A stretch of DNA of 64,000 bases from Candidatus Latescibacterota bacterium (GTDB lineage: Bacteria; Latescibacterota; UBA2968; UBA8231): positions 352,001 through 416,000 of the forward strand of contig OZ220090.1 in assembly GCA_964291625.2 (NCBI GenBank). The letters are read 5' to 3'. Shown piece by piece: positions 1,474 through 57,767 of the stretch (position 1 is its first letter; each line of letters begins with the position of its first letter). The position numbers and the translations under genes are program-made. The notes below the pieces were generated by a model. That model was not told the origin of the DNA and made no database searches. It was given only the letters and a program-made list of their open reading frames with translations.

Positions 1474-3420
1474 ATGACGGAGCACCCCCCCCCGGGCACA
1501 GGTCCGGTGCGGGCTCCGCGCACCCTGGTGGCCGGCTCGGCCATGTGCGTGCTCATCGCCGCCTGGGGGCCCTACAACCTTCTCGTGCACCGCGGGTCCT
1601 GCCTGACGATCGACTTCTCCACGGGGGCGGCGATCGCCGTCCTGTTCTTCGCCGTCTTCTTCCTCAACGGCCTGCTGCGCGCCTTCCTCCCGGGGCTGTC
1701 CCTCTCCTCCGGCGAGCTCTCCATCAGCTACCTGATGGCGGCGATCGCCTGCTCGATCTGCACCATGGGGCTGACCCTGCAGCTGGTGCCCCTGGTACCG
1801 GCCATGGACTACCTGGCCTCGCCGGAGAACGAGTGGGCCCGCGACATCCTGCCCTACGTGCCCCACTGGCTGCGGCTGCAGGGGGAAGACGTGATCCTCG
1901 GCTTCTACGAGGGCCTCTCCGAGGGCGAGTCGATCCCGTGGGGGGCCTGGGCGAAGCCGCTGCTGGCGTGGATGCCGGTGATCATCGGCCTCTACCTGGT
2001 CATGATCTCCCTGGCCGTGCTCTTCAGCCGCCAGTGGATCGAGCACGAGCGCCTCGCCTACCCCCTGGCCCAGGTGCCCCTGGTCATGACCTCCCAGGAG
2101 GAGGGCCGGGCCCTGAACGCCTTCTTCCGCAACCCGGTCATGTGGCTGGGCTTCTCCGTGCCCTTCACCAACACCGGCCTGAACGGCCTCCACTTCTACC
2201 ACCACTTCGTGCCGAATTTCTATCTGAACACCCACATCAACCTCTTCCACGACATGCCCGCCCTGTGGTTCAACCTCACCTTCCCGATGATGGGCTTCGC
2301 CTACCTGGTCCATCAGGAGGTGGCCCTGAGCGTCTGGCTGTTCTACCTGGTGGGCTACGCCGTCTCCGGCGTCTTCGCCCAGGTCGGCATCACCCGGAGC
2401 GTGACGCTGGACTACTACGCCCAGGCCGACGGCGGTCCGATCTTCTCCTACGTCCAGTTCGGCGCCCTCATGGCCCTGGTCGGCTATACCCTGTGGACGG
2501 CGCGGGGGCACCTGCGCGGCAGCTGGCGGGAAGCCTGGCGCTCGTCGACCTCCTCGGCCGGGGACGCCATGTCCATGCGCAGCGTCTACGTGCAGCTGAT
2601 CCTGGGGCTGGTGCTGATGACGGGATGGTTCGTCGCCGTGGGCGTGCCTCTCTGGGCGGGAGCGGCCTTCGTCCTGGTGATGACGGCCACCTTCCTGGGG
2701 ATCACCCGCATCCTCTGCGAGGCGGGGCTGGCCCGGACCCGGGCGCAGCTTCCCACGCCCACGGTGCTGCGCTCCATGGCCGGCACCGCCCACCTGGGCC
2801 CGGCCGGGACGATCGGCGTCCTGGGCTACGGGCAGGTCTGGATGAGCGACGTGCGCACCTTCGTCATGGCCGCCACCGCCAACGGCCTCAAGCTGACGGC
2901 CTCGATCCGGGGCAAGGCCCTGGTCCTGGGGAGCACGGTGCTGGCGGTGGTCCTCGCCCTCGTCGCGTCGATCGGGTCGACCCTCTACTTCGCCTACGAG
3001 AGCGGCGCCCACAACGCCAACAGCTGGTTCTTCATCCGCGCCCCCCGGTACATCGTCGACTTCGCCGCCGGGTACGTGCGGGAGCCGGCGGCCGTCGACG
3101 TGGCGGGCATGGGGCTGATGGGGCTGGGCGGGGCGGGCATGCTCGGCCTCTACTGGATCCGCGCCCACTTCATGGGCTTTCCCATCCACCCCCTGGGGCT
3201 CGCCGTCTCGCAGATGGCCCTCACCCGCCACCTGTGGTTCGCCATGTTCGTCGTCTGGCTGCTGAAGGCGGTCATGATCCGCTACGGCGGCCCCCGGCTG
3301 CTGCTGCGGGTGCGGCCCTTCTTCCTCGGCTTCATCCTCGGGGAGTTCGTGGCCCTCGCCACGTGGCTGATGATCGACCTGGCCACGGGGGCCCAGGGCA
3401 ACAGCCTCTACAACGTCTGA
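1474..3420 (+). CDS. Polytopic membrane protein, DUF6785/DUF6784 (OPT-like putative peptide transporter) family
   Basis: 648 aa with many TM helices; motifs RQWIEHERLAYPLAQVP, FPIHPLG, RYGG...RPFFLGFILGE. Confidence 0.75.
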   Translation: MTEHPPPGTGPVRAPRTLVAGSAMCVLIAAWGPYNLLVHRGSCLTIDFSTGAAIAVLFFAVFFLNGLLRAFLPGLSLSSGELSISYLMAAIACSICTMGLTLQLVPLVPAMDYLASPENEWARDILPYVPHWLRLQGEDVILGFYEGLSEGESIPWGAWAKPLLAWMPVIIGLYLVMISLAVLFSRQWIEHERLAYPLAQVPLVMTSQEEGRALNAFFRNPVMWLGFSVPFTNTGLNGLHFYHHFVPNFYLNTHINLFHDMPALWFNLTFPMMGFAYLVHQEVALSVWLFYLVGYAVSGVFAQVGITRSVTLDYYAQADGGPIFSYVQFGALMALVGYTLWTARGHLRGSWREAWRSSTSSAGDAMSMRSVYVQLILGLVLMTGWFVAVGVPLWAGAAFVLVMTATFLGITRILCEAGLARTRAQLPTPTVLRSMAGTAHLGPAGTIGVLGYGQVWMSDVRTFVMAATANGLKLTASIRGKALVLGSTVLAVVLALVASIGSTLYFAYESGAHNANSWFFIRAPRYIVDFAAGYVREPAAVDVAGMGLMGLGGAGMLGLYWIRAHFMGFPIHPLGLAVSQMALTRHLWFAMFVVWLLKAVMIRYGGPRLLLRVRPFFLGFILGEFVALATWLMIDLATGAQGNSLYNV

Positions 3421-3426
3421 CTCCCC

Positions 3427-4173
3427 TCAGCCCTCCCGTTCCTTCTTCCAGGCCTCGTACTCGGGACGCGCCTCCTCCGACAGGGGGTAATACTTCCTCA
3501 GGTGGCCGCCCTCGAGCAGCCGCAGGCGGCTGAACTCCTCCCACTCGGCGTGGGAGCCGGCGGCCTCCACGAGCTCGGCAGCCAGCTTCGCCGGCACCGC
3601 CACGACCCCGTCGTCGTCGGCGACGATGATGTCCCCGGGCAGGACCAGGCTGTCGTTGAGGGCGATGGGCACGTTCACCGCGTAGGGGAAGATGCTCGTC
3701 TGGGTGTGGAAGTTGGGGGTCACCCCCCGCAGCCACAGGCCCAGGTCGAGGTCCCGCTGCACGATGGGGTAGTCGCGGATGCAGCCGTCGACGACGACGC
3801 CGGCGCCACCGCGGCCCTGGAAGAAGGTGAGCATCATGTTGCCGAAGACGCCGCTCTTCATGTCGCCCCGGGCGTCGACGCAGACCACGTCGCCCGGCTG
3901 CGTGTGGTAGAGCACGTGGCGGTGGAGCTGCGACTCCGGGTCGGCGTACTCGTCCTGGTCGTACACGTCCTCGCGCTGGGGCATGAACTGCAGGGTGAGG
4001 GCCGGGCCGACGACGCTCTTTCCGGGGGTGAAGGGCACGGGCCCGAGGACGTGGGGGTCCTGGATGCCGAGGCGCTTGAGCTCACCGGCGGCGGTGGCCG
4101 AGCCGATCTCCCGGAGCCCGTCGATGATCTCCGGCGGCGGGCGCTCGATGTCGGGGGTGTGGGTGTCGGCCAT
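3427..4173 (-). CDS. RraA/HMG aldolase family protein
   Basis: VVGPALTLQFMPQRED, GVFGNMM, VVDGCIRD, VLPGDIIVADDDGVVAVP; purine-rich RBS before ATG at 4173. Confidence 0.85.
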   Translation of the reverse strand: MADTHTPDIERPPPEIIDGLREIGSATAAGELKRLGIQDPHVLGPVPFTPGKSVVGPALTLQFMPQREDVYDQDEYADPESQLHRHVLYHTQPGDVVCVDARGDMKSGVFGNMMLTFFQGRGGAGVVVDGCIRDYPIVQRDLDLGLWLRGVTPNFHTQTSIFPYAVNVPIALNDSLVLPGDIIVADDDGVVAVPAKLAAELVEAAGSHAEWEEFSRLRLLEGGHLRKYYPLSEEARPEYEAWKKEREG

Positions 4174-48641: not shown

Positions 48642-48715
48642 GTGAGCAACGGCGACCTCAACTGGATCGCGAACTACATCTGGGGCATCGCCGACGACGT
48701 CCTGCGCGACCTCTA
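48642..48715 (+). pseudogene. hsdM: 5' fragment of type I R-M methyltransferase hsdM, interrupted by an IS
   Basis: Translates MSNGDLNWIANYIWGIADDVLRDL, which joins YVRGKYRDVILPMTVLRR on the far side of the IS. Confidence 0.9.
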
Positions 48716-50013
48716 AGGAACTGTCCAGAAATAAGTGCTGTTCTTTTTGGTGGCAGGGTGTTACCTTTGATGCGTGGACACGGAGAGCACTCTGCGGGCG
48801 AAATACAAAGCCCTGGCGCCGGTGTTGAACGAGCGCACGGGACGGTTGTGGGCCGCGTCGGAGGCGCAAGCCCTGGGGCATGGCGGCATTGCCGTGGTGG
48901 CTCGGGCCACGGGCCTGTCGCGGACCCGGATCGCTCGCGGCCTGCAGGAACTGCAGTCGGACGCCCCGTTGGATCCCGGCCGGGTGCGTCGGCCGGGCGG
49001 CGGTCGCAAGCGACGCGTCGACACCGACGTGACGCTGTTGTCGGACCTCAACGCCCTGGTCGAACCGGTCACCGCCGGGGCGCCGGACGACAGCCCCTTG
49101 CGATGGACGTCGAAGAGCACCCGCAAGTTGGCGGCCGAGTTGCAGGCCCTGGGCCATTCGGTGAGTCCTGGCCTCGTCAGCGGACTGTTGCGCGAGCTTG
49201 GCTACACGCTGCAGGCCAATCGCAAGACGAGAGAAGGCACCCAACACCCGGATCGGGACGCCCAGTTTCACTATCTCAACGACCAGGTCCAAAGGGCCCA
49301 GGCTCAAGGCCAGCCGGTCATTTCGGTGGACACCAAGAAGAAGGAGCTGATCGGCGACTTCAAGAACGGGGGCCGGGCCTGGCGTCCGAAGGGCGAGCCG
49401 GAGCGCGTGAAGGTGCACGATTTCGTCATCCCCGCCCAGGGCAAGGCGATTCCCTACGGGGTCTACGACCTGAACCGCAACGAAGGCTGGGTCAGCGTCG
49501 GGGTCGACCACGACACGGCCGGTTTCGCGGTGAACGCCATCCGCAGCTGGTGGAAACGCATGGGGCGTCCGGCCTACCCGGCGGCCTCGCACCTGTGGAT
49601 CACGGCCGATGCGGGGGGCAGCAACGGCCCGAGACTGCGGCTGTGGAAATGGGAATTGCAGCGCTTCGCCGATCGCACGGGCCTGACGATCACCGTCTGT
49701 CACTATCCTCCGGGCACGAGCAAGTGGAACCGCATCGAGCATCGCCTGTTCTCCTATATCGCCAAGAACTGGCGAGGCCAGCCGTTGGTCAGTCTGGCCA
49801 CGGTGGTCAACCTGATCGGCCGGACGACCACGAAGAAAGGGCTTCGGGTACGCGCGGAGATCGACAAGCGATCGTATCCCAAAGCGGTGGTCGTCAAGGA
49901 CGAGCAAATGGAGCGCATCGATCTCTCGCCCCATGAGTTTCACGGGGACTGGAACTACACGATCCGGCCCACAGCGGCCAGCCGAAGTGAATCATCTGTT
50001 TCGTGACAAAGCC
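48716..50013 (+). mobile_element. ISAzo13-family insertion sequence (ends uncertain by about 2 bp)
   Basis: Imperfect terminal IRs: GGAACTGTCCAGAAATAAGTG versus the reverse complement of the right end, GGCTTTGTCACGAAACAGATG. Short target duplication CTA (48713-48715 and 50013-50015) inside hsdM. Confidence 0.88.
48774..50006 (+). CDS. ISAzo13-family DDE transposase
   Basis: RVRRPGGGRK, SPLRWTSKS, HPDRDAQF, ISVDTKKKELIG, ADAGGSNG, PPGTSKWNRIEHRLFS, FHGDWNY. Confidence 0.95.
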   Translation: MDTESTLRAKYKALAPVLNERTGRLWAASEAQALGHGGIAVVARATGLSRTRIARGLQELQSDAPLDPGRVRRPGGGRKRRVDTDVTLLSDLNALVEPVTAGAPDDSPLRWTSKSTRKLAAELQALGHSVSPGLVSGLLRELGYTLQANRKTREGTQHPDRDAQFHYLNDQVQRAQAQGQPVISVDTKKKELIGDFKNGGRAWRPKGEPERVKVHDFVIPAQGKAIPYGVYDLNRNEGWVSVGVDHDTAGFAVNAIRSWWKRMGRPAYPAASHLWITADAGGSNGPRLRLWKWELQRFADRTGLTITVCHYPPGTSKWNRIEHRLFSYIAKNWRGQPLVSLATVVNLIGRTTTKKGLRVRAEIDKRSYPKAVVVKDEQMERIDLSPHEFHGDWNYTIRPTAASRSESSVS

Positions 50014-52379
50014 TACGTGCGCGGCAAGTACCGCGACGTGATCCTGCCCATGACCGTGCTGCGCCGGCTGGACGCGGTGCTGGAGGAGAGCAAGCAGGAG
50101 GTCCTGGGGATGAAGGCCACCCTCGACCAGGCCGGCGTCGTCGAGCAGGACGCCACCCTGCGGCAGACCGCCGGGCAGGCCTTCTACAACACCTCGAAGT
50201 TCACCCTGAAGGACCTGAGGGCCCGCGCCAACCGCCAGCAGCTCGAGGCCGACTTCCGGGCCTGGCTCGACGGGTTCTCGCCCAACGTGCAGGACATCCT
50301 CGACAACTTCGAGTTCCGCAACCAGATCCAGCGGCTCTCCCGGGCCGACGCCCTGGGCACGCTGATCGAGAAGCTGACCTCGCCCGACATCAACCTGAGC
50401 CCGGTCCCGGTCCACGGTTCCGACGGCACGGTCCGGCACCCCGGCCTGGACAACCACGGCATGGGCACGATCTTCGAGGAGCTGATCCGGCGCTTCAACG
50501 AGGAGAACAACGAGGAGGCGGGCGAGCACTGGACCCCCCGCGACGCCGTGACCCTGATGGCCAAGCTCGTCTTCCTGCCCGTGGCCGACCGGATCAAGTC
50601 CGGCACCTACCTGATCTACGACGGGGCCTGCGGCACCGGGGGCATGCTGACCGTGGCCGAAGACGTGCTCCAGCAGCTCGCCGCCGACCACGGCCGGCAG
50701 GTCTCCACCCATCTCTATGGCCAGGAGATCAATGCCGAGACCTACGCCATCTGCAAGGCCGACCTGCTGCTGAAGGGGGAAGGGGACGCGGCCGACAACA
50801 TCGTGGGCGGCCCCGAGCACTCGACCCTGGCCAACGACGCCTTCCCGTCCCGCGAGTTCGACTTCATGCTCTCCAATCCGCCCTACGGCAAGAGCTGGAA
50901 GACCGACCTGGAACGCATGGGCGGCAAGCGCGACATGCGCGACCCGCGCTTCGTGATCGAGCACGACGGCGATCCCGAGTACTCCCTGGTCACCCGCTCC
51001 AGCGACGGCCAGATGCTCTTCCTCGCCAACAAGCTCTCCAAGATGAAGCCGGGCGGCAGCCGCATCGCCGAGGTCCACAACGGCAGCTCCCTGTTCACCG
51101 GCGACGCCGGCCAGGGCGAGAGCAACATCCGCCGCTGGATCATCGAGAACGACTGGCTGGAGGCGATCGTCGCCCTGCCCCTCAACATGTTCTACAACAC
51201 CGGCATCGCCACCTACGTCTGGGTCCTCAGCAACCGCAAGCCGGAGCACCGCCGCGGCAAGGTGCAGCTGATCGACGCTACCGGGTGGCACCGGCCCCTG
51301 CGCAAGAACCTGGGCAAGAAGAACTGCGAGCTCGGCGAGGAGGACATCCAGCGTATCTGCGACACCTTTCTCGCCTTCGAGGAGAGCGAGCAGAGCAAGA
51401 TCTTCGACAACGCCGCCTTCGGCTACTGGAAGGTGACGGTCGAGCGGCCGCTGCGCCTCGAAGGAGCCGACCCCGACCGCGCCTGCAAGGCCGCCGAGAT
51501 CAAGAAGCTGAAGGAGAGCTGCGAGCGCAGCGAGAGTGCTCCGGCTGTCATCAGGAAGATCCACAAGCGAGGCACGGAAGCCGATCCGCTACGCGGCCGG
51601 TTCGAGGCGACGGTGAACGGCCGACACGCCGTGGTGGAGTACGAGCCGGACACCGCCCTGCGCGACACCGAGCAGATCCCGCTGCAGGAGGAGGGCGGCA
51701 TCGAGGCGTTCCTGCGGCGGGAGGTCCTGCCATATGCCCCCGACGCCTGGTACCAGCCGGACAGCGTGAGAATCGGCTACGAGATCAGCTTCACGCGGTA
51801 TTTCTACAAGCCCCAGCCGATGCGCACGCTGGAGGAGATCGGTGCGGACATCCTGGCGTTGGAGAGGGAGACGGAAGGGCTGCTCGACGATCTGCCCCTG
51901 GTGCGCGAACCGGCGACTGAGTACGGCAAGCCGCGCATCTACGTGGATACCTCGGTGATCGGCGGCTGCCATGACGATGAATTCCGCGAGCCATCGATGC
52001 AGTTGTTCGAGATGTTTCGCCAGGGAGAAGCCACGATGCTTCTCTCGGGCATCACTCTGGATGAACTAGCGGATGCTCCGCCCCCATCAGGCAGGCCACC
52101 AGCACCGTTCCCTCGGAACACAAGGAGCTCCTTGCCGTTTCAAGAGAGGCAGAAGAGCTCGCCGATGCCTACATCGCGGCTGGGGCCATGGGTGGGGCCA
52201 ACCTGAACGATGCGCTGCACATCGCTCTCGCGACCCTGGCCAAGGCCGATGTCCTGGTGAGCTGGAACTTCAGGCACATGGTGAACTGGCGGCGCATCAG
52301 GGCCTGCAACGAGGTCAATCGCAAGAATGGATACCATGCCATCGACATTCGCACCCCGGAGGAAACCGTCCATGACTGA
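50014..52379 (+). CDS. hsdM: Type I R-M methyltransferase HsdM (main part) fused at its C-terminus to a PIN domain; frameshift in the C-run near 52082
   Basis: AGEHWTPRD, YDGACGTGG (motif I), NPPY (motif IV), GYEISFTRYFY, then without a stop into KPRIYVDTSVIGG (PIN). Confidence 0.85.
51928..52379 (+). CDS. PIN (VapC-like) nuclease domain at the 3' end of hsdM
   Basis: IYVDTSVIGG..D.EF, S.ITLDEL, frameshift, then ELADAYI..G, DALHIALAT...DVLVSWNFRHMVN..RI...N...GY..IDIRTP. Confidence 0.8.
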
Positions 52380-52587
52380 AGACCGTCCCACCAAGAAGAG
52401 ATTCGACTGCGTCAAGTTCATGCGCGAGGCCCGCGCCCGCAGTGCCGCAAAGACAGCCCACATGACGACTGGCGAACGGATTGAGTGGTTCAATACCCGT
52501 CGGTATGACGACCCCGTGCTGGAAGAAATGGCCGCGCGATTGCGCCAATCCATACAGGACAGGGCGACGGATAGCCGCGCAGACTGA
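52372..52587 (+). CDS. Small protein, probable antitoxin partner of the PIN domain
   Basis: 71 aa; RBS GGAGGA; start overlaps the PIN stop; KKRFDCVKFMREAR motif resembles small genes I recall next to this PIN class. Confidence 0.6.
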   Translation: MTEDRPTKKRFDCVKFMREARARSAAKTAHMTTGERIEWFNTRRYDDPVLEEMAARLRQSIQDRATDSRAD

Positions 52588-52619
52588 CAGGCCGAGAAGC
52601 GATTCCACCGGAGGGAGCA

Positions 52620-52754
52620 ATGCCTTACGCGGAAGACTGGAACGACCCGAAGGCCATGTTGCGAGACGCCGTGCTCTGCCATTTCGACGACACCACGCCG
52701 CGACCCAGGTTGATTCGCCTTCATTCTGTCCGCGATGAGGTCCACTTGGCATGA
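52620..52754 (+). pseudogene. 44-aa remnant of a HicB-like antitoxin (not in the ORF track)
   Basis: RBS GGAGGGAG, then MPYAEDWNDPKAMLRDAVLCHFDDTTPRPRLIRLHSVRDEVHLA; DAV.CHFD...P..IRLH.VRDE matches the C-terminal half of a HicB-fold family; stop overlaps the hsdS ATG. Confidence 0.55.
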
Positions 52755-54187
52755 AATCGCCAAACGTCCGGGAATTGAAGCCGTATCCGGAAATGAAGGA
52801 CTCTGGCGTCGAGTGGCTCGGGGAAGTGCCTGCGCATTGGGAGGTCAAACCCAACCGCACCCTCTTTGATGAGGTAAGGGAGCGAGGTCGACCAGAAGAA
52901 CCGATGCTATCAGTAACGATCAAACGGGGTGTCATACGCCAGAGTGACCTCCTGGAGAATGCATCAAAGAAGGATGGTTCAAACCTGGACAAATCGGCCT
53001 ACAAACTGGTCAAACCTGGGGACATCGCATACAACAAGATGAGAGCATGGCAAGGTGCGGTGGGGGCGTCTGAGTATCGAGGCATCGTTAGTCCTGCCTA
53101 CGTTGTTGAGCGTCCACGCAATGGAGTCAGCTCTGGCTTCCTCCATTACTTGCTTCGGATGCCCGGTTTCGCAAAAGAGGCCGAACGCTGGTCATACGGG
53201 ATTACATCGGACATGTGGAGCCTACGGCCTGAACACTTCAAGATGATCTACGCATGCCTTCCTCCTTCCATCGAACAAACCGCCATCGTCCGCTTCCTCG
53301 ACCACGCCGACCGACGCATCCGGCGCTACATCCGCGCCAAGCAGAAGCTGATTGCGCTGCTGGAGGAGCAGAAGCAGGCCATCATCCACCAAGCCGTTAT
53401 AGGCCAGATGGACCTCCGGACTGGACGCCCCTATCCGTCGTACAAGGACTCAGGCGTGGAGTGGTTAGGCGACTTGCCTGATCATTGGGAAGTGAGACGG
53501 ATAGGCAGTCTTGCCAAAGTAGGTAATGGCTCGACACCTGCTCGCAGTAATCAAGCATATTGGAGTGACGGTTCGTATCCCTGGCTGAACAGTTCCAGCG
53601 TGAACCAGGGTAGGATAACGGAGGCTGACCAGTTCGTAACAGAGACAGCGCTTCGAGAGTGCCATTTGCCGAGAGTCCCTGCGGACAGCGTGCTTGTTGG
53701 AATCACCGGGCAGGGAAAGACGCGGGGTATGGCCGCAGTGTTGGCGATTGAAGTGACGATCAACCAGCATTTGGCGTACATAACACCAAGAGCCGGCAGG
53801 GCGTGGTTGACCTCCGGCTATCTTCACATGTGCCTCACTGCGGCGTATACAGAGTTGCGCGCAATCAGCAGCGCTTCCGGCAGCACTAAGGGTGCCCTGA
53901 CATGCGAGGACATCAAGTCCTTCAGCGTTCCACTGCCTCCGATGGAGGAACAAGAAGCGGTGCTCTTGTCGATCAGGAGGAGTCTTACCCCTCTAGAGAA
54001 CTGTGTGGACCTAGCGCAGCGCCAGATTGAACTTCTGAAGGGGTACCGCGCCCGCCTCATCGCGGATGTCGTCACCGGCAAGCTCGATGTGCGCGGGGCG
54101 GCGGCTGGGTTGCCTTCGGAAGACATCCCCGGGGACCTCGATAAGCCAGCGGAAGAGGACGGAGTCGACAGAGAGATAGCCGTATGA
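52751..54187 (+). CDS. hsdS: Type I R-M specificity subunit HsdS
   Basis: Two repeats of YP..KDSGVEWLG..P.HWEV, two lower-GC TRDs, P..EQ helical spacers, LIADVVTGKLDVR. Confidence 0.93.
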   Translation: MKSPNVRELKPYPEMKDSGVEWLGEVPAHWEVKPNRTLFDEVRERGRPEEPMLSVTIKRGVIRQSDLLENASKKDGSNLDKSAYKLVKPGDIAYNKMRAWQGAVGASEYRGIVSPAYVVERPRNGVSSGFLHYLLRMPGFAKEAERWSYGITSDMWSLRPEHFKMIYACLPPSIEQTAIVRFLDHADRRIRRYIRAKQKLIALLEEQKQAIIHQAVIGQMDLRTGRPYPSYKDSGVEWLGDLPDHWEVRRIGSLAKVGNGSTPARSNQAYWSDGSYPWLNSSSVNQGRITEADQFVTETALRECHLPRVPADSVLVGITGQGKTRGMAAVLAIEVTINQHLAYITPRAGRAWLTSGYLHMCLTAAYTELRAISSASGSTKGALTCEDIKSFSVPLPPMEEQEAVLLSIRRSLTPLENCVDLAQRQIELLKGYRARLIADVVTGKLDVRGAAAGLPSEDIPGDLDKPAEEDGVDREIAV

Positions 54188-54241
54188 CGCTCGGCCAGCC
54201 GAGCCATCCCTATTATGTTTCCATCGCAAAGGAGGCAACGC

Positions 54242-54759
54242 ATGACAGACGGGAGCAAGTGGCGTGCGGTGGAGAGCGTGCCCGGCCGACTCAGCGGGGC
54301 CTGGGTTTTCGGGGGCACTCGGCTGCCCGTGTCGGCCCTCTTCGGCAACTGGCGGAGGGCGCGACCGTCCACGACTTCATCGAGTGGTTCGGCGGGGTGG
54401 ACGAAGAACAGATGCGGGATGTAATGAGAGTCACCGTATCCATTGACGAAGAGACCTATCGGCTCGCCCGAGTCCGAGCGGCGGAATTGGACACCTCGGT
54501 GTCAGCCTTGGTACGGGGCTACCTGGAGAGCTTGGTCGAGGACGACGGCTCTGGCGCGACGGCGACCGGTAGCAGAGACGCAGAGAAAGAGGCCAAGCGT
54601 CGGCGTGAGTTGATGAGGCGGGTCTTCCAAGACTTCGACGCCCGTGGCATCGGCCTGAGGATGTCCGATAATAGCCAGGTCCGAGGCTCAGGCGGCGGCC
54701 GCCGCCGAAGTCCAAGACAACCGTGGGTGACCGCCATGGACTCTCTCCAGACTAACTAG
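54242..54759 (+). pseudogene. DUF433 domain joined to a ribbon-helix-helix antitoxin domain; frameshift near 54349 and a probably damaged C-terminus
   Basis: VESVPGRLSGAWVFGGTRLPVSALF.N / LAEGATVHDFIEWF.GV (DUF433), continuing into MRVTVSIDEETYRLARVRAAELDTSVSALVRGYL (RHH). Confidence 0.65.
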
Positions 54760-54763
54760 CGGA

Positions 54764-57700
54764 ATGCCCACCGACACCACCGAACGCGGCCTCGAGCGCC
54801 TTATCTGCACCACCCTGGCCGGCCATCCCTGTGACGCGCCTCCGGGCCCCACTGTAGGCGAGCCTCCAGCCCCCTACACCGGGTCCGGTTGGAGCGGCGG
54901 GAACTTCCACGACTACGACCGCGAGTACTGCGTCGACCTGGCCCAGCTCTCCGCCTTCCTGCGCGCCACCCAGCCGGAAGCATCCGAGTCCCTGAGCCTG
55001 TCCGAAACCGGCCCGACGCGCCGCCGGTTCCTGGCCCGGCTCCAGGGAGAGATCAGCAAGCGGGGCACCATCGACGTGCTGCGCCACGGCATCCGGCACG
55101 GGGCCCACGATCTCGACCTGTTTTACGGCACGCCCTCGGCCGACAACCCGGAGGCGCAGGAGCGCTTCGGGCAGAACCGCTTTACCGTCACCCGCCAGCT
55201 CCGCTACAGCCGCGACGAGACCCAGCGGGCCCTCGACATCGGGCTGTTCATCAACGGCCTGCCGGTCCTCACCTTCGAGCTGAAGAACAGCCTCACCAAG
55301 CAGACGGTCGACGACGCCGTCCAGCAGTACCAGCGCGACCGCAACCCGCGGGAGAGGCTGTTCGAACTGGGCCGCTGCGTTGCCCACTTCGCCGTGGACG
55401 AGAGCGAGGTCCGGTTCTGCACCCACCTCCGGGGCAAGGCCTCGTGGTTCCTGCCCTTCAACCGGGGCTGGAACGACGGCGCCGGCAACCCGCCCAACGC
55501 CAGCGGCATCAAGGCCGACTACCTGTGGCGCGAGGTGCTGACCCCGGAGAGTCTGACCGACATCCTCGAGAACTACGCCCAGGTGGTGGAGGCGAGGGAC
55601 GAGAAGACGGGCCGGCGGAGCCGGAGCCAGGTCTGGCCGCGCTACCACCAGCTCGACGTGGTGCGCCGCCTGCTCTCGGACGCGGGCGACCGCGGCGCCG
55701 GAGAGCGCTACCTGATCCAGCACTCGGCCGGCAGCGGCAAGAGCAACTCCATCGCCTGGCTGGCCCACCAGTTGATCGGGCTGACGCGGGACGGCGTTCC
55801 CGCCTTCGATTCGATCATCGTCGTCACCGACCGGGTGATCCTGGACCGGCAGATCCGCGACACGATCCGCCAGTACGCCCAAGTCTCGGCGACCGTGGGT
55901 CACGCCGACCGCTCCGGCGACCTGCGCCGGTTCATCGAGAGCGGCAAGAAGATCATCATCTCCACGGTGCAGAAGTTCCCCTTCATCCTCGACGAGATCG
56001 GCAACGAGCAGCGGGGGCGCCGCTTCGCCATCATCATCGACGAGGCCCACTCGAGCCAGGGAGGCCGCGCCAGCTCGGCCATGGCCCGGGCCCTCTCCGA
56101 GGCCGGGGAAGAGGAGGAGGACGAGACTTTCGAGGACCGCATCAACCGCCTCATGGAGTCGCGCAAGCTGCTGCCCAACGCCAGCTACTTCGCCTTTACC
56201 GCCACGCCGAAGAACAAGACCCTGGAGAGATCTTCGGCGCCCCCGACCCGCGGCCCGACGGGGCGGTCCGGCACCACGCCTTCCACAGCTACACCATGAA
56301 GCAGGCGATCCAGGAGGGCTTCATCCTCGACGTGCTCGCCCACTACATGCCGGTGGCCAGCTACTACAGGCTCGCCAAGACCGTGGAGGAGGACCCGGAG
56401 TTCGACGTGAGGAAGGCCCAGAAGAAGCTGCGCCGCTTCGTCGAGGGCAGCGGCCACGCCATCCGGCTCAAGGCCGAGATCATGGTCGACCACTTCCACG
56501 ACCAGGTCCTGGCCCAGGGCAAGGTCGGCGGCCAGGCCCGGGCCATGGTGGTCACCAACGGCGTCGAGCGGGCGATCCAGTACTACCACGCCATCCGCGA
56601 CTACCTCCTGGAGCGCAAGAGCCCCCACCGGGCGATCGTCGCCTTCTCGGGGGAGCACGACTTCGGCGGGGGCCGGGTGACCGAGGCCTCCCTGAACGAA
56701 TTCCCCTCCGGCCGGATCGCCGAGCAGTTCCAGGGGGAGCCATACCGCTTCCTGGTCTGCGCCGACAAGTTCCAGACCGGGTACGACGAGCCCCCCTGCT
56801 GCACACGATGTACGTCGACAAGACGCTCTCCGGTATCAAGGCGGTGCAGACCCTGTCCCGGCTCAACCGGGCCCACCCGAAGAAGCACGACGTCTTTGTC
56901 CTCGACTTCCTCAACGACGAGGAGATCATCAAGCACGCCTTCTCCGACTACTACCGGGCCACGATCCTGGCCGACGAGACCGACCCCGACAAGCTCCACG
57001 ACCTGCAGGCGGACCTGGACGGCGCCCAGGTATACGACCCCGCGCAGGTCGACGACCTGGTCGAGCGCTACCTCGGCGGCGCCGAGCGCGACCAGCTCGA
57101 CCCGATCCTCGACGCCTGCGTGGCGGTCTACCGGAGTCTGGACGAGGACCGGCAGGTCGACTTCAAGGGCCAGGCCAAGGGCTTCGTGCGGACCTACGCC
57201 TTCCTCTCCTCCGTGCTGCCCTACAGCGACGAGGGCTGGGAGAAGCGCTCGATCTTCCTGAACTTCCTGATCCCGAAGCTGCCGGCGCCCGAGGAGGAGG
57301 ACCTGTCGAAGGGGATCCTCGACGCCATCGACCTCGACAGCTACCGGGTGGAGAAGCAGGAGATGAGGAAGATCCTGCTGCCCGACGAGGACGCCGAGGT
57401 CGACCCGGTGCCGGCCGCCGGGGGAGGGCACCGCCCCGAGCAGGAGCTGGACCGGCTGTCGAACATCCTCAGGACCTTCAACGACCACTGGGGCACCGAC
57501 TGGGAGGACGGCGACCGTGTGGGACAGCTGATCACCGAGGTGATACCCTCCAAGGTGGCCGCCGACACCGCCTTCCGGAACGCCCGCCAGAACTCGGACC
57601 GCGAGAACACCCGCATCGAGGGCGACAAGGTGCTGATCCGGGTCATGAACTCGGTGATGAAGGACGACACCCAGTTGTTCAAGAAGTTCATGGACGACCC

Positions 57701-57767
57701 CGGATTCCAGCGCTGGATGGCGGATACGGTCTTCGGGCTTGCGTACGAGCAGGCCCGGGGCCCCTGA
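54764..57767 (+). CDS. hsdR: Type I R-M restriction subunit HsdR; frameshifts near 56228 and 56795
   Basis: D..LFINGLP...ELK nuclease motif, HSAGSGKS, IIDEAHSSQ, FAFTATPK, YTMKQAIQEGFILDV, KFQTGYDEP, MYVDK.L.GIKAVQTLSRLNR, spread over three frames. Confidence 0.9.

Follow-up and report, generated by a model that had tools for sequence, protein, structure and literature searches.

The stretch of Candidatus Latescibacterota DNA that we analysed (the window: 64 kb of contig OZ220090.1) carries a type I restriction-modification (R-M) operon in the order hsdM, embedded genes, hsdS, further embedded genes, hsdR (Table 1; coordinates are window positions, and all parts lie on the + strand). The methylase gene hsdM runs in frame into a PIN domain, and a small gene for a protein of 71 amino acids (aa) overlaps the PIN stop codon. 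We propose that this is probably a toxin-antitoxin (TA)-like module, with a toxin that has come to form the C-terminal domain of HsdM. Such a fusion could make the R-M cassette addictive or give it an abortive back-up. The copy in the window looks dead.

Pfam finds HsdM_N (PF12161, E = 7e-19) and N6_Mtase (PF02384, E = 4.6e-52) on the open frame at 49933-52206, and the motifs SNPPYG and DGACGTGG are visible in the HsdM translation. An intact relative (P0126) matches PADLOC MTase_I with E = 2.5e-233. The NCBIfam model TIGR00497 reaches 87.7 bits on HsdM against a cut-off of 242.75, so this is not the equivalog.

No stop separates hsdM from the PIN domain (...ILALERETEGLLDDLPLVREPATEYGKPRIYVDTSVIGG...): past ...ILALERETEGLLDDL, the same frame continues into PLVREPATEYGKPRIYVDTSVIGG.... 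A first-pass annotation, made from the letters of the window, had described this covalent fusion with no stop between HsdM and PIN and no evident ribosome-binding site for a separate PIN start. The frame is indeed open through the linker, and by eye there is no Shine-Dalgarno-like stretch before the possible internal start there. The annotation was also right that the acidic motifs of the PIN domain are all present and that one indel in a run of Cs splits it. The Asp of YVDTS and the Glu of DE lie in the first piece; the Asp of DALH and the Asp of ADVLVSWNF lie in the second, which from 52080 reads APIRQATSTVPSEHKELLAVSREAEELADAYIAAGAMGGANLNDALHIALATLAKADVLVSWNFRHMV...ETVHD in another frame. 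The 71-aa gene starts at the ATG within ATGACTGA and overlaps the PIN stop as had been noted, and this arrangement is conserved in all five aligned relatives. The annotated start at 50014 needs correcting: an insertion sequence (IS) has its right edge at this position, and the true start of hsdM is the GTG at 48642.

Table 1. Features of the R-M locus, in window positions (ORF, open reading frame; nt, nucleotides).
Feature	Position	Strand	Remarks
hsdM 5' fragment	48642..48715	+	GTG start and 24 codons; ends at a stop made by the IS junction
Left copy of a 3-nt duplication (CTA)	48713..48715	+	IS insertion site
ISAzo13-family IS	48716..50012	+	Interrupts hsdM; transposase ORF 48774-50006 (PF07592, DDE_Tnp_ISAZ013, E = 1.7e-140)
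hsdM remainder	50013..51888	+	Rest of HsdM_N, N6_Mtase with NPPY motif, long C-terminal region to ...ETEGLLDD
HsdM-PIN linker	51889..51933	+	DLPLVREPATEYGKP; stop-free; GTG at 51901 where relatives have ATG-GTG
PIN, first half	51934..52085	+	RIYVDTSVIGG...LDELADAPP; hsdM frame; terminates in the C-run 52081-52085, one base short
PIN, second half	52080..52379	+	APIRQATSTVPSEHKELL...NDALHIALATLAKADVLVSWNFRHMV...ETVHD, stop; -1 frame
71-aa antitoxin-like partner gene	52372..52587	+	Intact; overlap with the PIN stop 8 nt
44-aa ORF	52620..52754	+	Apparent C-terminal remnant of a 72-aa gene; overlaps the hsdS start
hsdS (478 aa, apparently intact)	52751..54187	+	PF01420, E = 7.1e-21; PADLOC Specificity_I, E = 5.1e-106, profile positions 1-433 of 434
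Remains of embedded small genes	54184..54759	+	Split DUF433-like piece and ribbon-helix-helix-like antitoxin gene
hsdR, read in three frames	54764..57767	+	HSDR_N, SWI2_SNF2 and ResIII (Pfam) on the first piece

The fusion is not confined to this genome. Seven of 61 genomes (its own included) hold a match that spans the HsdM-PIN junction, and in all six relatives with the locus a single open frame runs from the hsdM start (the locus edge in G025) to the end of the PIN domain. The database homologues that exceed 174 aa number 52; of these, 30 have 810-865 aa with PF02384 and PF12161, and four more are cut forms with PF02384. One fused entry is named 'N-6 DNA methylase, partial' and another 'type I restriction enzyme M protein'; for the 812-aa fusion proteins, the precomputed domains are those of HsdM alone, which makes it easy for annotation to miss the nuclease.

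We also searched a collection with one genome per species, in which 594 stretches of the PIN family were confirmed; the locus counts and the tree given here come from the best 80 of these 594. In 10 of the 80 loci, an hsdM of the same clade (73-95% identical) lies directly upstream, and in eight of these 10 the open frame extends over 814-948 aa. In L016, hsdM is frameshifted, and in L031 it is broken, with a stop at the first PIN strand. In the other 70 loci, the 4-kb flanks show no similarity to type I R-M genes. In a maximum-likelihood tree of 78 PIN domains (L031 and L060, missed by the motif filter, are omitted), the HsdM-linked PINs form one clade (9/9, support 98/82, 96% of bootstrap trees). 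According to the record titles, the fused clade includes Latescibacterota, Acidobacteriota and Gammaproteobacteria. The HsdM parts are much more alike than the PIN parts across the fusions, and the cassette therefore seems to travel as a unit. As judged from these sequences, the HsdM-PIN fusion is a genuine conserved covalent architecture and not a one-genome accident; it has one origin in the sampled tree, and its members span three phyla. The first-pass annotation had suggested that the architecture be sought in other genomes, and there it is, in relatives and in database proteins. The annotation had also considered an accidental deletion fusion; the same junction recurs in six relatives and about 30 database proteins. 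As for its worry that the fusion might be unique and the PIN frameshift real, the frameshift does look real (see below), and the uniqueness fails.

PIN-less relatives show how the fused genes differ from unfused ones. The HsdM proteins of the same clade without a PIN domain (G027, G042, G056, G059) have the same domains, and their genes share 76-87% DNA identity with the fused ones as far as the end of hsdM. This DNA similarity ends at query positions 488-491 (about 51887-51890), and the sister genes stop 7-17 residues after ETEGLL, whereas the fused clade has the linker and a PIN domain of about 150 aa. In free-standing PINs, 3-5 residues precede the first strand (for instance, MKPRIY.DTS). 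The fusion has thus put a linker of about 15 residues in place of the tail and stop codon of HsdM. The linker sequence varies among fusions and is not conserved across the clade. The second half of the PIN in the window is 82-83% identical to the best of the shorter entries (127-145 aa) and 74-89% identical to most fused forms. By eye from translations, the genes that follow the sister hsdM genes look HigB/HigA-like or P0176-like; for example, the PIN-less hsdM of G027 (L008) is followed by what look like genes for a HigB-like toxin and a helix-turn-helix (HTH) antitoxin. It seems that various TA modules gather between hsdM and hsdS in this R-M clade.

The domain has the fold and the acidic positions of a PIN domain. 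D18, E57 and the D119-equivalent are invariant and D106 (the Asp of DALH) is at least 90% conserved (alignments A2, 14 sequences, and A4, 23 fused sequences). In the window, the second piece matches PF01850 with E = 0.032 and 15.3 bits, and the first piece has no Pfam family. A free homologue (P0015) scores 26.1 bits, over the cut-off of 23.6, and many homologues carry precomputed PF01850 or PF13470. NCBIfam and PADLOC gave nothing for the PIN domain. An AlphaFold model of the intact PIN from the relative G007 has a predicted local distance difference test score (pLDDT) of 88.7, and its top Foldseek matches in the PDB include 1w8i (E = 7.1e-5), Shigella VapC (3tnd, TMt 0.67), Mycobacterium tuberculosis VapCs (TMt 0.62-0.66) and 5x3t. 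The second-ranked match is a non-PIN entry, the cyclodehydratase 9c5w, and the third is PcrIIC1 (8wmm_G, TMt 0.68). The model thus confirms that the intact relative has a PIN fold. In a full-length fold of the 812-aa HsdM-PIN protein (A4, 23 rows), the mean pLDDT is 43.5 and the predicted TM-score (pTM) is 0.30; only about residues 662-812, the PIN domain, are confident, and the placement of PIN on HsdM is unreadable.

Across these loci, the gene behind PIN is almost as widespread as PIN itself. Downstream of PIN, 78 of the 80 loci have an ORF of 45-128 aa that in most cases overlaps the stop of PIN, and one of the two misses is near the locus end. Searching with the 71-aa protein from the window, phmmer matched 43 of these 78 ORFs; an iterated profile matched 77 of the 78, which is partly circular because the profile was built on the same ORFs. 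Members share the pattern K..FD.V..MR..RD, with K9, D12, R18 and R21 invariant. The ESM Atlas returned only 'hypothetical protein' clusters (score 0.93-0.94, recognition below the mark). For PIN and partner from G007, complex prediction gave a score of 0.80, and the best control 0.00; among solved complexes, 116 of 157 attain that mark, and among mismatched pairs 2 of 215 do, counts that hold here roughly, as our own alignments were used. The runs agreed on at least 97% of contacts, with a partner pLDDT of at least 78. The predicted interface joins PIN residues 18-24, 55-63, 102-106 and 124-128 to partner residues 9-25, and it includes the four conserved acidic positions. So the partner is predicted to bind across the catalytic pocket of PIN, with its invariant Lys/Asp/Arg stretch against the acidic site. 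A homologue on a Leptospira plasmid (43% identical) is annotated as a type II toxin-antitoxin system VapC family toxin; next to it is a replication initiation gene, and behind it a homologue of the partner (hmmsearch E = 7.9e-10). The first-pass annotation had called the 71-aa gene antitoxin-like, and the conserved position directly behind PIN, together with the modelled interface, points the same way. We consider the partner a candidate new antitoxin family.

The copy of the operon in the window looks like an inactivated relic, in which hsdS and the partner gene alone look intact. The locus looks dead because of the IS in hsdM, the one-base deletion in PIN and two frameshifts of +2 in hsdR; the first-pass annotation overlooked the IS and the hsdR frameshifts. 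The IS separates codon 24 of hsdM from the rest, and the short 5' fragment translates as the N-terminus of intact relatives (MSNGDLNWIANYIWGIADDVLRDL). In four public sequencing runs, IS-free contigs join 48712 directly to 50013/50014, with three letters (CTA) common to both sides, which is consistent with a target duplication of the IS. In run X24, the IS-free joints have depths of 84-132, versus about 6-10 for the exact contigs of this genome; these joints probably derive from related organisms, so they are no evidence of IS polymorphism in this strain. Outside this locus, the IS is matched best by two partial stretches of contig C1 at 91-95% identity; the genome's other fragments of it match less well. 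A search found no clear terminal inverted repeats at the ends of the IS; by eye, the ends match weakly.

In PIN, the C-run at 52081-52085 has exactly one base fewer than in five relatives of 85-89% identity (alignment A1, column 290); for instance, G025 has CCCCCC where the window has CCCCC. The relatives read DAPPSV/PPV-RQATS in a single frame here. The first-pass annotation had asked for a look at this run in reads, and a 412-nt contig of run X24 (depth 10) is the same as 51987-52398 with 0 differences and 0 gaps, so the deletion is present in read-derived data. Run X24 contains 65% of the sampled words and is possibly the sample behind the assembly of the window; no sequencing platform is recorded for it, and a systematic homopolymer error at the C-run is therefore conceivable. 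Runs X1-X3 contain 9-13% of the sampled words, and their pieces differ from the window in about 6-9% of letters. They represent versions from relatives and not this genome, and we take them as no guide to its habitat. The contigs of X1 and X3 over the C-run are about 6-9% divergent with one gap each (the gap position is not given), which is consistent with an intact PIN in relatives.

Compared with the hsdR of G007, that of the window carries 2 surplus bases at 56225 and 2 more at 56791, and contigs of four runs show 'left out 2' at 56791. We also compared indels between the window and G007 over about 50 kb: most of the non-triplet indels are paired or in divergent stretches, and the odd one could be either genome, so we drew no frameshift rate from them. 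The hsdR of G007 has a 1-base gap of its own at CC, matching window position 55645. It seems that hsdR is broken, or mis-assembled, independently in two related genomes.

How might an intact HsdM-PIN cassette work? We propose that a two-gene module, a VapC-like PIN and its translationally coupled partner, was captured in the hsdM-hsdS slot; that the hsdM stop was then lost; and that PIN came to be made as a C-terminal domain behind the linker. HsdM-PIN and the partner would be translated from one message, and the partner would keep the tethered nuclease silent. If the supply of partner is halted, either by loss of the cassette or by an infection that shuts off host gene expression, then the partner would decay, and PIN, still tethered to HsdM or to the M2S complex, would cut RNA and halt growth. 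The R-M cassette would thereby be addictive and could gain an abortive back-up. The conserved fusion of a toxin-like domain with an R-M subunit is a testable system in which to ask what stabilises R-M cassettes or lends them an abortive back-up. The partner family would also be a candidate antitoxin class that accompanies a PIN family of several hundred stretches in the one-genome-per-species data.

The module resembles VapBC type II TA systems in its PIN fold, its acidic pocket, its small adjacent and overlapping gene, the predicted position of the partner over the active site, and the VapC annotation of the plasmid homologue. It differs in that the toxin is a domain of an 812-aa methylase instead of a protein of about 150 aa, and in that the partner is downstream and belongs to no curated family. 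In VapBC pairs, the antitoxin gene usually comes first and encodes a DNA-binding domain for autoregulation, either ribbon-helix-helix (RHH), AbrB or HTH; here, the partner is downstream in 78 of the 80 loci and has no Pfam or NCBIfam domain.

PIN toxin modules inside R-M clusters are known. The passages of Matelska et al. 2017 (PMC5499597) covered by our search describe PIN-like genes coupled to HsdM and HsdS as separate genes; they state that a direct interaction of TA with R-M systems had not been demonstrated, and they mention no fusion. Similarly, M. tuberculosis vapC21 adjoins hsdS.1 and hsdM, as stated in the covered part of PMC7517352. The module in the window is like these in lying within an R-M cluster and unlike them in being covalently attached to HsdM. 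Our full-text literature search turned up no description of an HsdM-PIN fusion; Supplementary Figure S7 of PMC5499597, which lists operons, was outside that search. As a variant of the TA modules that lie inside type I R-M operons, the fusion is apparently undescribed.

Several points weigh against our proposal. That the partner decays faster than HsdM-PIN is pure inference. The partner has no Pfam, NCBIfam or PADLOC family, and Pfam gives chance-level hits for its homologues. It lacks a recognisable DNA-binding domain, and its gene follows that of the toxin, unlike VapBC, in whose classical form the antitoxin gene lies upstream. The score of the predicted complex is a model confidence, to which VapBC complexes learned by the model may contribute. 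The PIN of an intact fused relative scores 19.3 bits with PF01850, below the cut-off of 23.6, and by eye the Asp of DALH is Ala in a fused protein (P0158) and in a 204-aa entry (P0155). Among the HsdM-linked copies, those of the window, L016 and L031 are broken, so the fusion could be costly or weakly selected. Finally, eight of the 10 linkers in HsdM-linked loci hold an ATG, GTG or TTG that might serve as a start codon, and separate translation of PIN is conceivable there.

We also considered, after a proposal in the first-pass annotation, that the fusion might be a guard, with the HsdM-tethered PIN acting as a PrrC-like sensor-effector: phage anti-restriction proteins, on binding or disabling the M2S or R2M2S complex, would release the nuclease and cause abortive infection. 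DNA mimics such as Ocr and ArdA target the HsdM-containing complex, and in the fusion the toxin is physically part of the targeted subunit. Also, the fusion is intact across three phyla, so the tether itself may matter. The precedent is PrrC in the EcoprrI operon, which the covered parts of PMC12707154 and bioRxiv 10.1101/2024.01.29.577857 present as a guard of R-M. Like PrrC, the predicted PIN nuclease would be an RNA-cutting toxin in a type I R-M operon and a possible back-up when restriction fails. However, PrrC is an anticodon nuclease of the ABC-ATPase type that is silenced non-covalently by the R-M complex, without an antitoxin gene; here, the toxin is covalent to HsdM and comes with a partner. 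No Pfam output contains an ABC-ATPase domain of the PrrC type, and the appended domain is PIN. Furthermore, the same PIN-partner module is free-standing in most loci, away from type I R-M genes, and it also adjoins a plasmid replication gene. Given this mostly R-M-free distribution, silencing is therefore predicted to be by the module's own partner and not, as for PrrC, by the R-M complex. The R-M-free occurrence and the plasmid context fit a generic TA module at least as well as a guard, and we consider the guard unlikely, if still worth bearing in mind.

In the most far-reaching reading, the tether is itself the design point: the assembly state of the methylase would gate PIN, so that a phage anti-restriction protein that binds or displaces M2S, or a loss of assembly, exposes PIN or strips off its inhibitor. 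We give this reading a small chance. If it is true, the R-M system would carry its own guard and dispense with a separate sensor, and the partner family would be a new antitoxin class shared with hundreds of free-standing modules.

The similarity to PcrIIC1 raises another possibility, namely that PIN is no RNase toxin and cuts DNA together with the R-M complex, as PcrIIC1 does with Cas9, and that the small protein regulates or bridges the two. Besides the structural match to the CbCas9-PcrIIC1 complex, tethering to a DNA-bound methylase would place the nuclease on DNA. However, several of the other Foldseek matches, with similar TM-scores, are VapC toxins, and the free two-gene form and the plasmid context fit a TA module. 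Also, hsdR-like sequence lies in the 4-kb flank of four of the 10 HsdM-linked loci, and both the window and G007 have an hsdR, so there seems to be no nuclease gap for PIN to fill there. An auxiliary DNA nuclease therefore seems improbable.

Alternatively, two proteins might be made from one frame: the hsdM stop codon was lost, and PIN is still made from an internal start (the ATG-GTG of relatives, or the GTG at 51901 in the window). All five aligned relatives, and G057 as well, have ATG-GTG in the linker, and most HsdM-linked loci have a possible start codon of some kind. However, the window has lost the ATG (CTG-GTG), and it lacks a Shine-Dalgarno-like stretch before the possible start; the linker is unconserved across the clade; and two of the 10 loci (L016 and L024) have no ATG, GTG or TTG between the end of HsdM and the first PIN strand, so separate initiation is not the general rule. 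An internal start would not keep the long fused product from being made as well. We regard this explanation as very improbable.

Lastly, an assembly error at the junction or the frameshift, or a one-off fusion, is hardly credible: the genome is a 2-contig assembly with 95% completeness, and the 1-base gap at CC in G007 hsdR and the unrecorded platform of X24 make homopolymer errors conceivable, but the junction recurs in relatives and databases, the C-run deletion is in a separately built depth-10 contig, and an IS insertion and two +2 insertions in hsdR are atypical of read errors.

Other small genes are embedded in the operon. The 44-aa ORF before hsdS resembles, by eye, a 72-aa protein (P0176) whose gene is whole in G007 (L002, 2724-2942), and the DNA of this stretch is kept before hsdS in several relatives (query 1233-1301). 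Neither P0176 nor the 44-aa ORF has a Pfam family. Genes like that of P0176 follow hsdM in the PIN-less sister loci L009 and L011. Between hsdS and hsdR, the window has sub-threshold Pfam hits to DUF433 (E = 0.0041) and DUF6364 (E = 0.0013). In the same gap, G007 (L101, 7464-8227) has a DUF6364/FitA-like RHH gene followed by a second PIN gene (PF01850, 43 bits); this PIN gene is missing from the window. G007 and G035 also have several further genes between hsdS and hsdR.

We noticed some variants of the fusion. The fused proteins P0128 and P0132 have 865 aa instead of 812; in P0128 the extra is an insert of about 53 residues after ...VERPLRL, in the C-terminal region of HsdM. In G057 (L007, about 2480-3900), a second partner-like ORF lies behind the fused PIN and its partner, and another stretch of G057 matches the 3' part of PIN and the start of the partner gene. 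G052 (L006, about 2706) has a 75-aa PIN remnant. These extras suggest tandem or decayed duplicates of the module. Locus L038 (Thermoanaerobaculia) has a 649-aa open frame that ends in PIN and shows no HsdM similarity, so we kept it out of the fusion count; PIN may have some other N-terminal fusion partner there, or the frame may simply be open because the DNA is G+C-rich.

Finally, in runs X1-X3 and X24, which carry sponge or marine metagenome labels, contigs like hsdM and hsdR (window 50000-57500) have summed depths in the thousands, and the PIN-partner stretch has about 8-43. This R-M clade is abundant in those runs as many variants, most of them apparently without this PIN.

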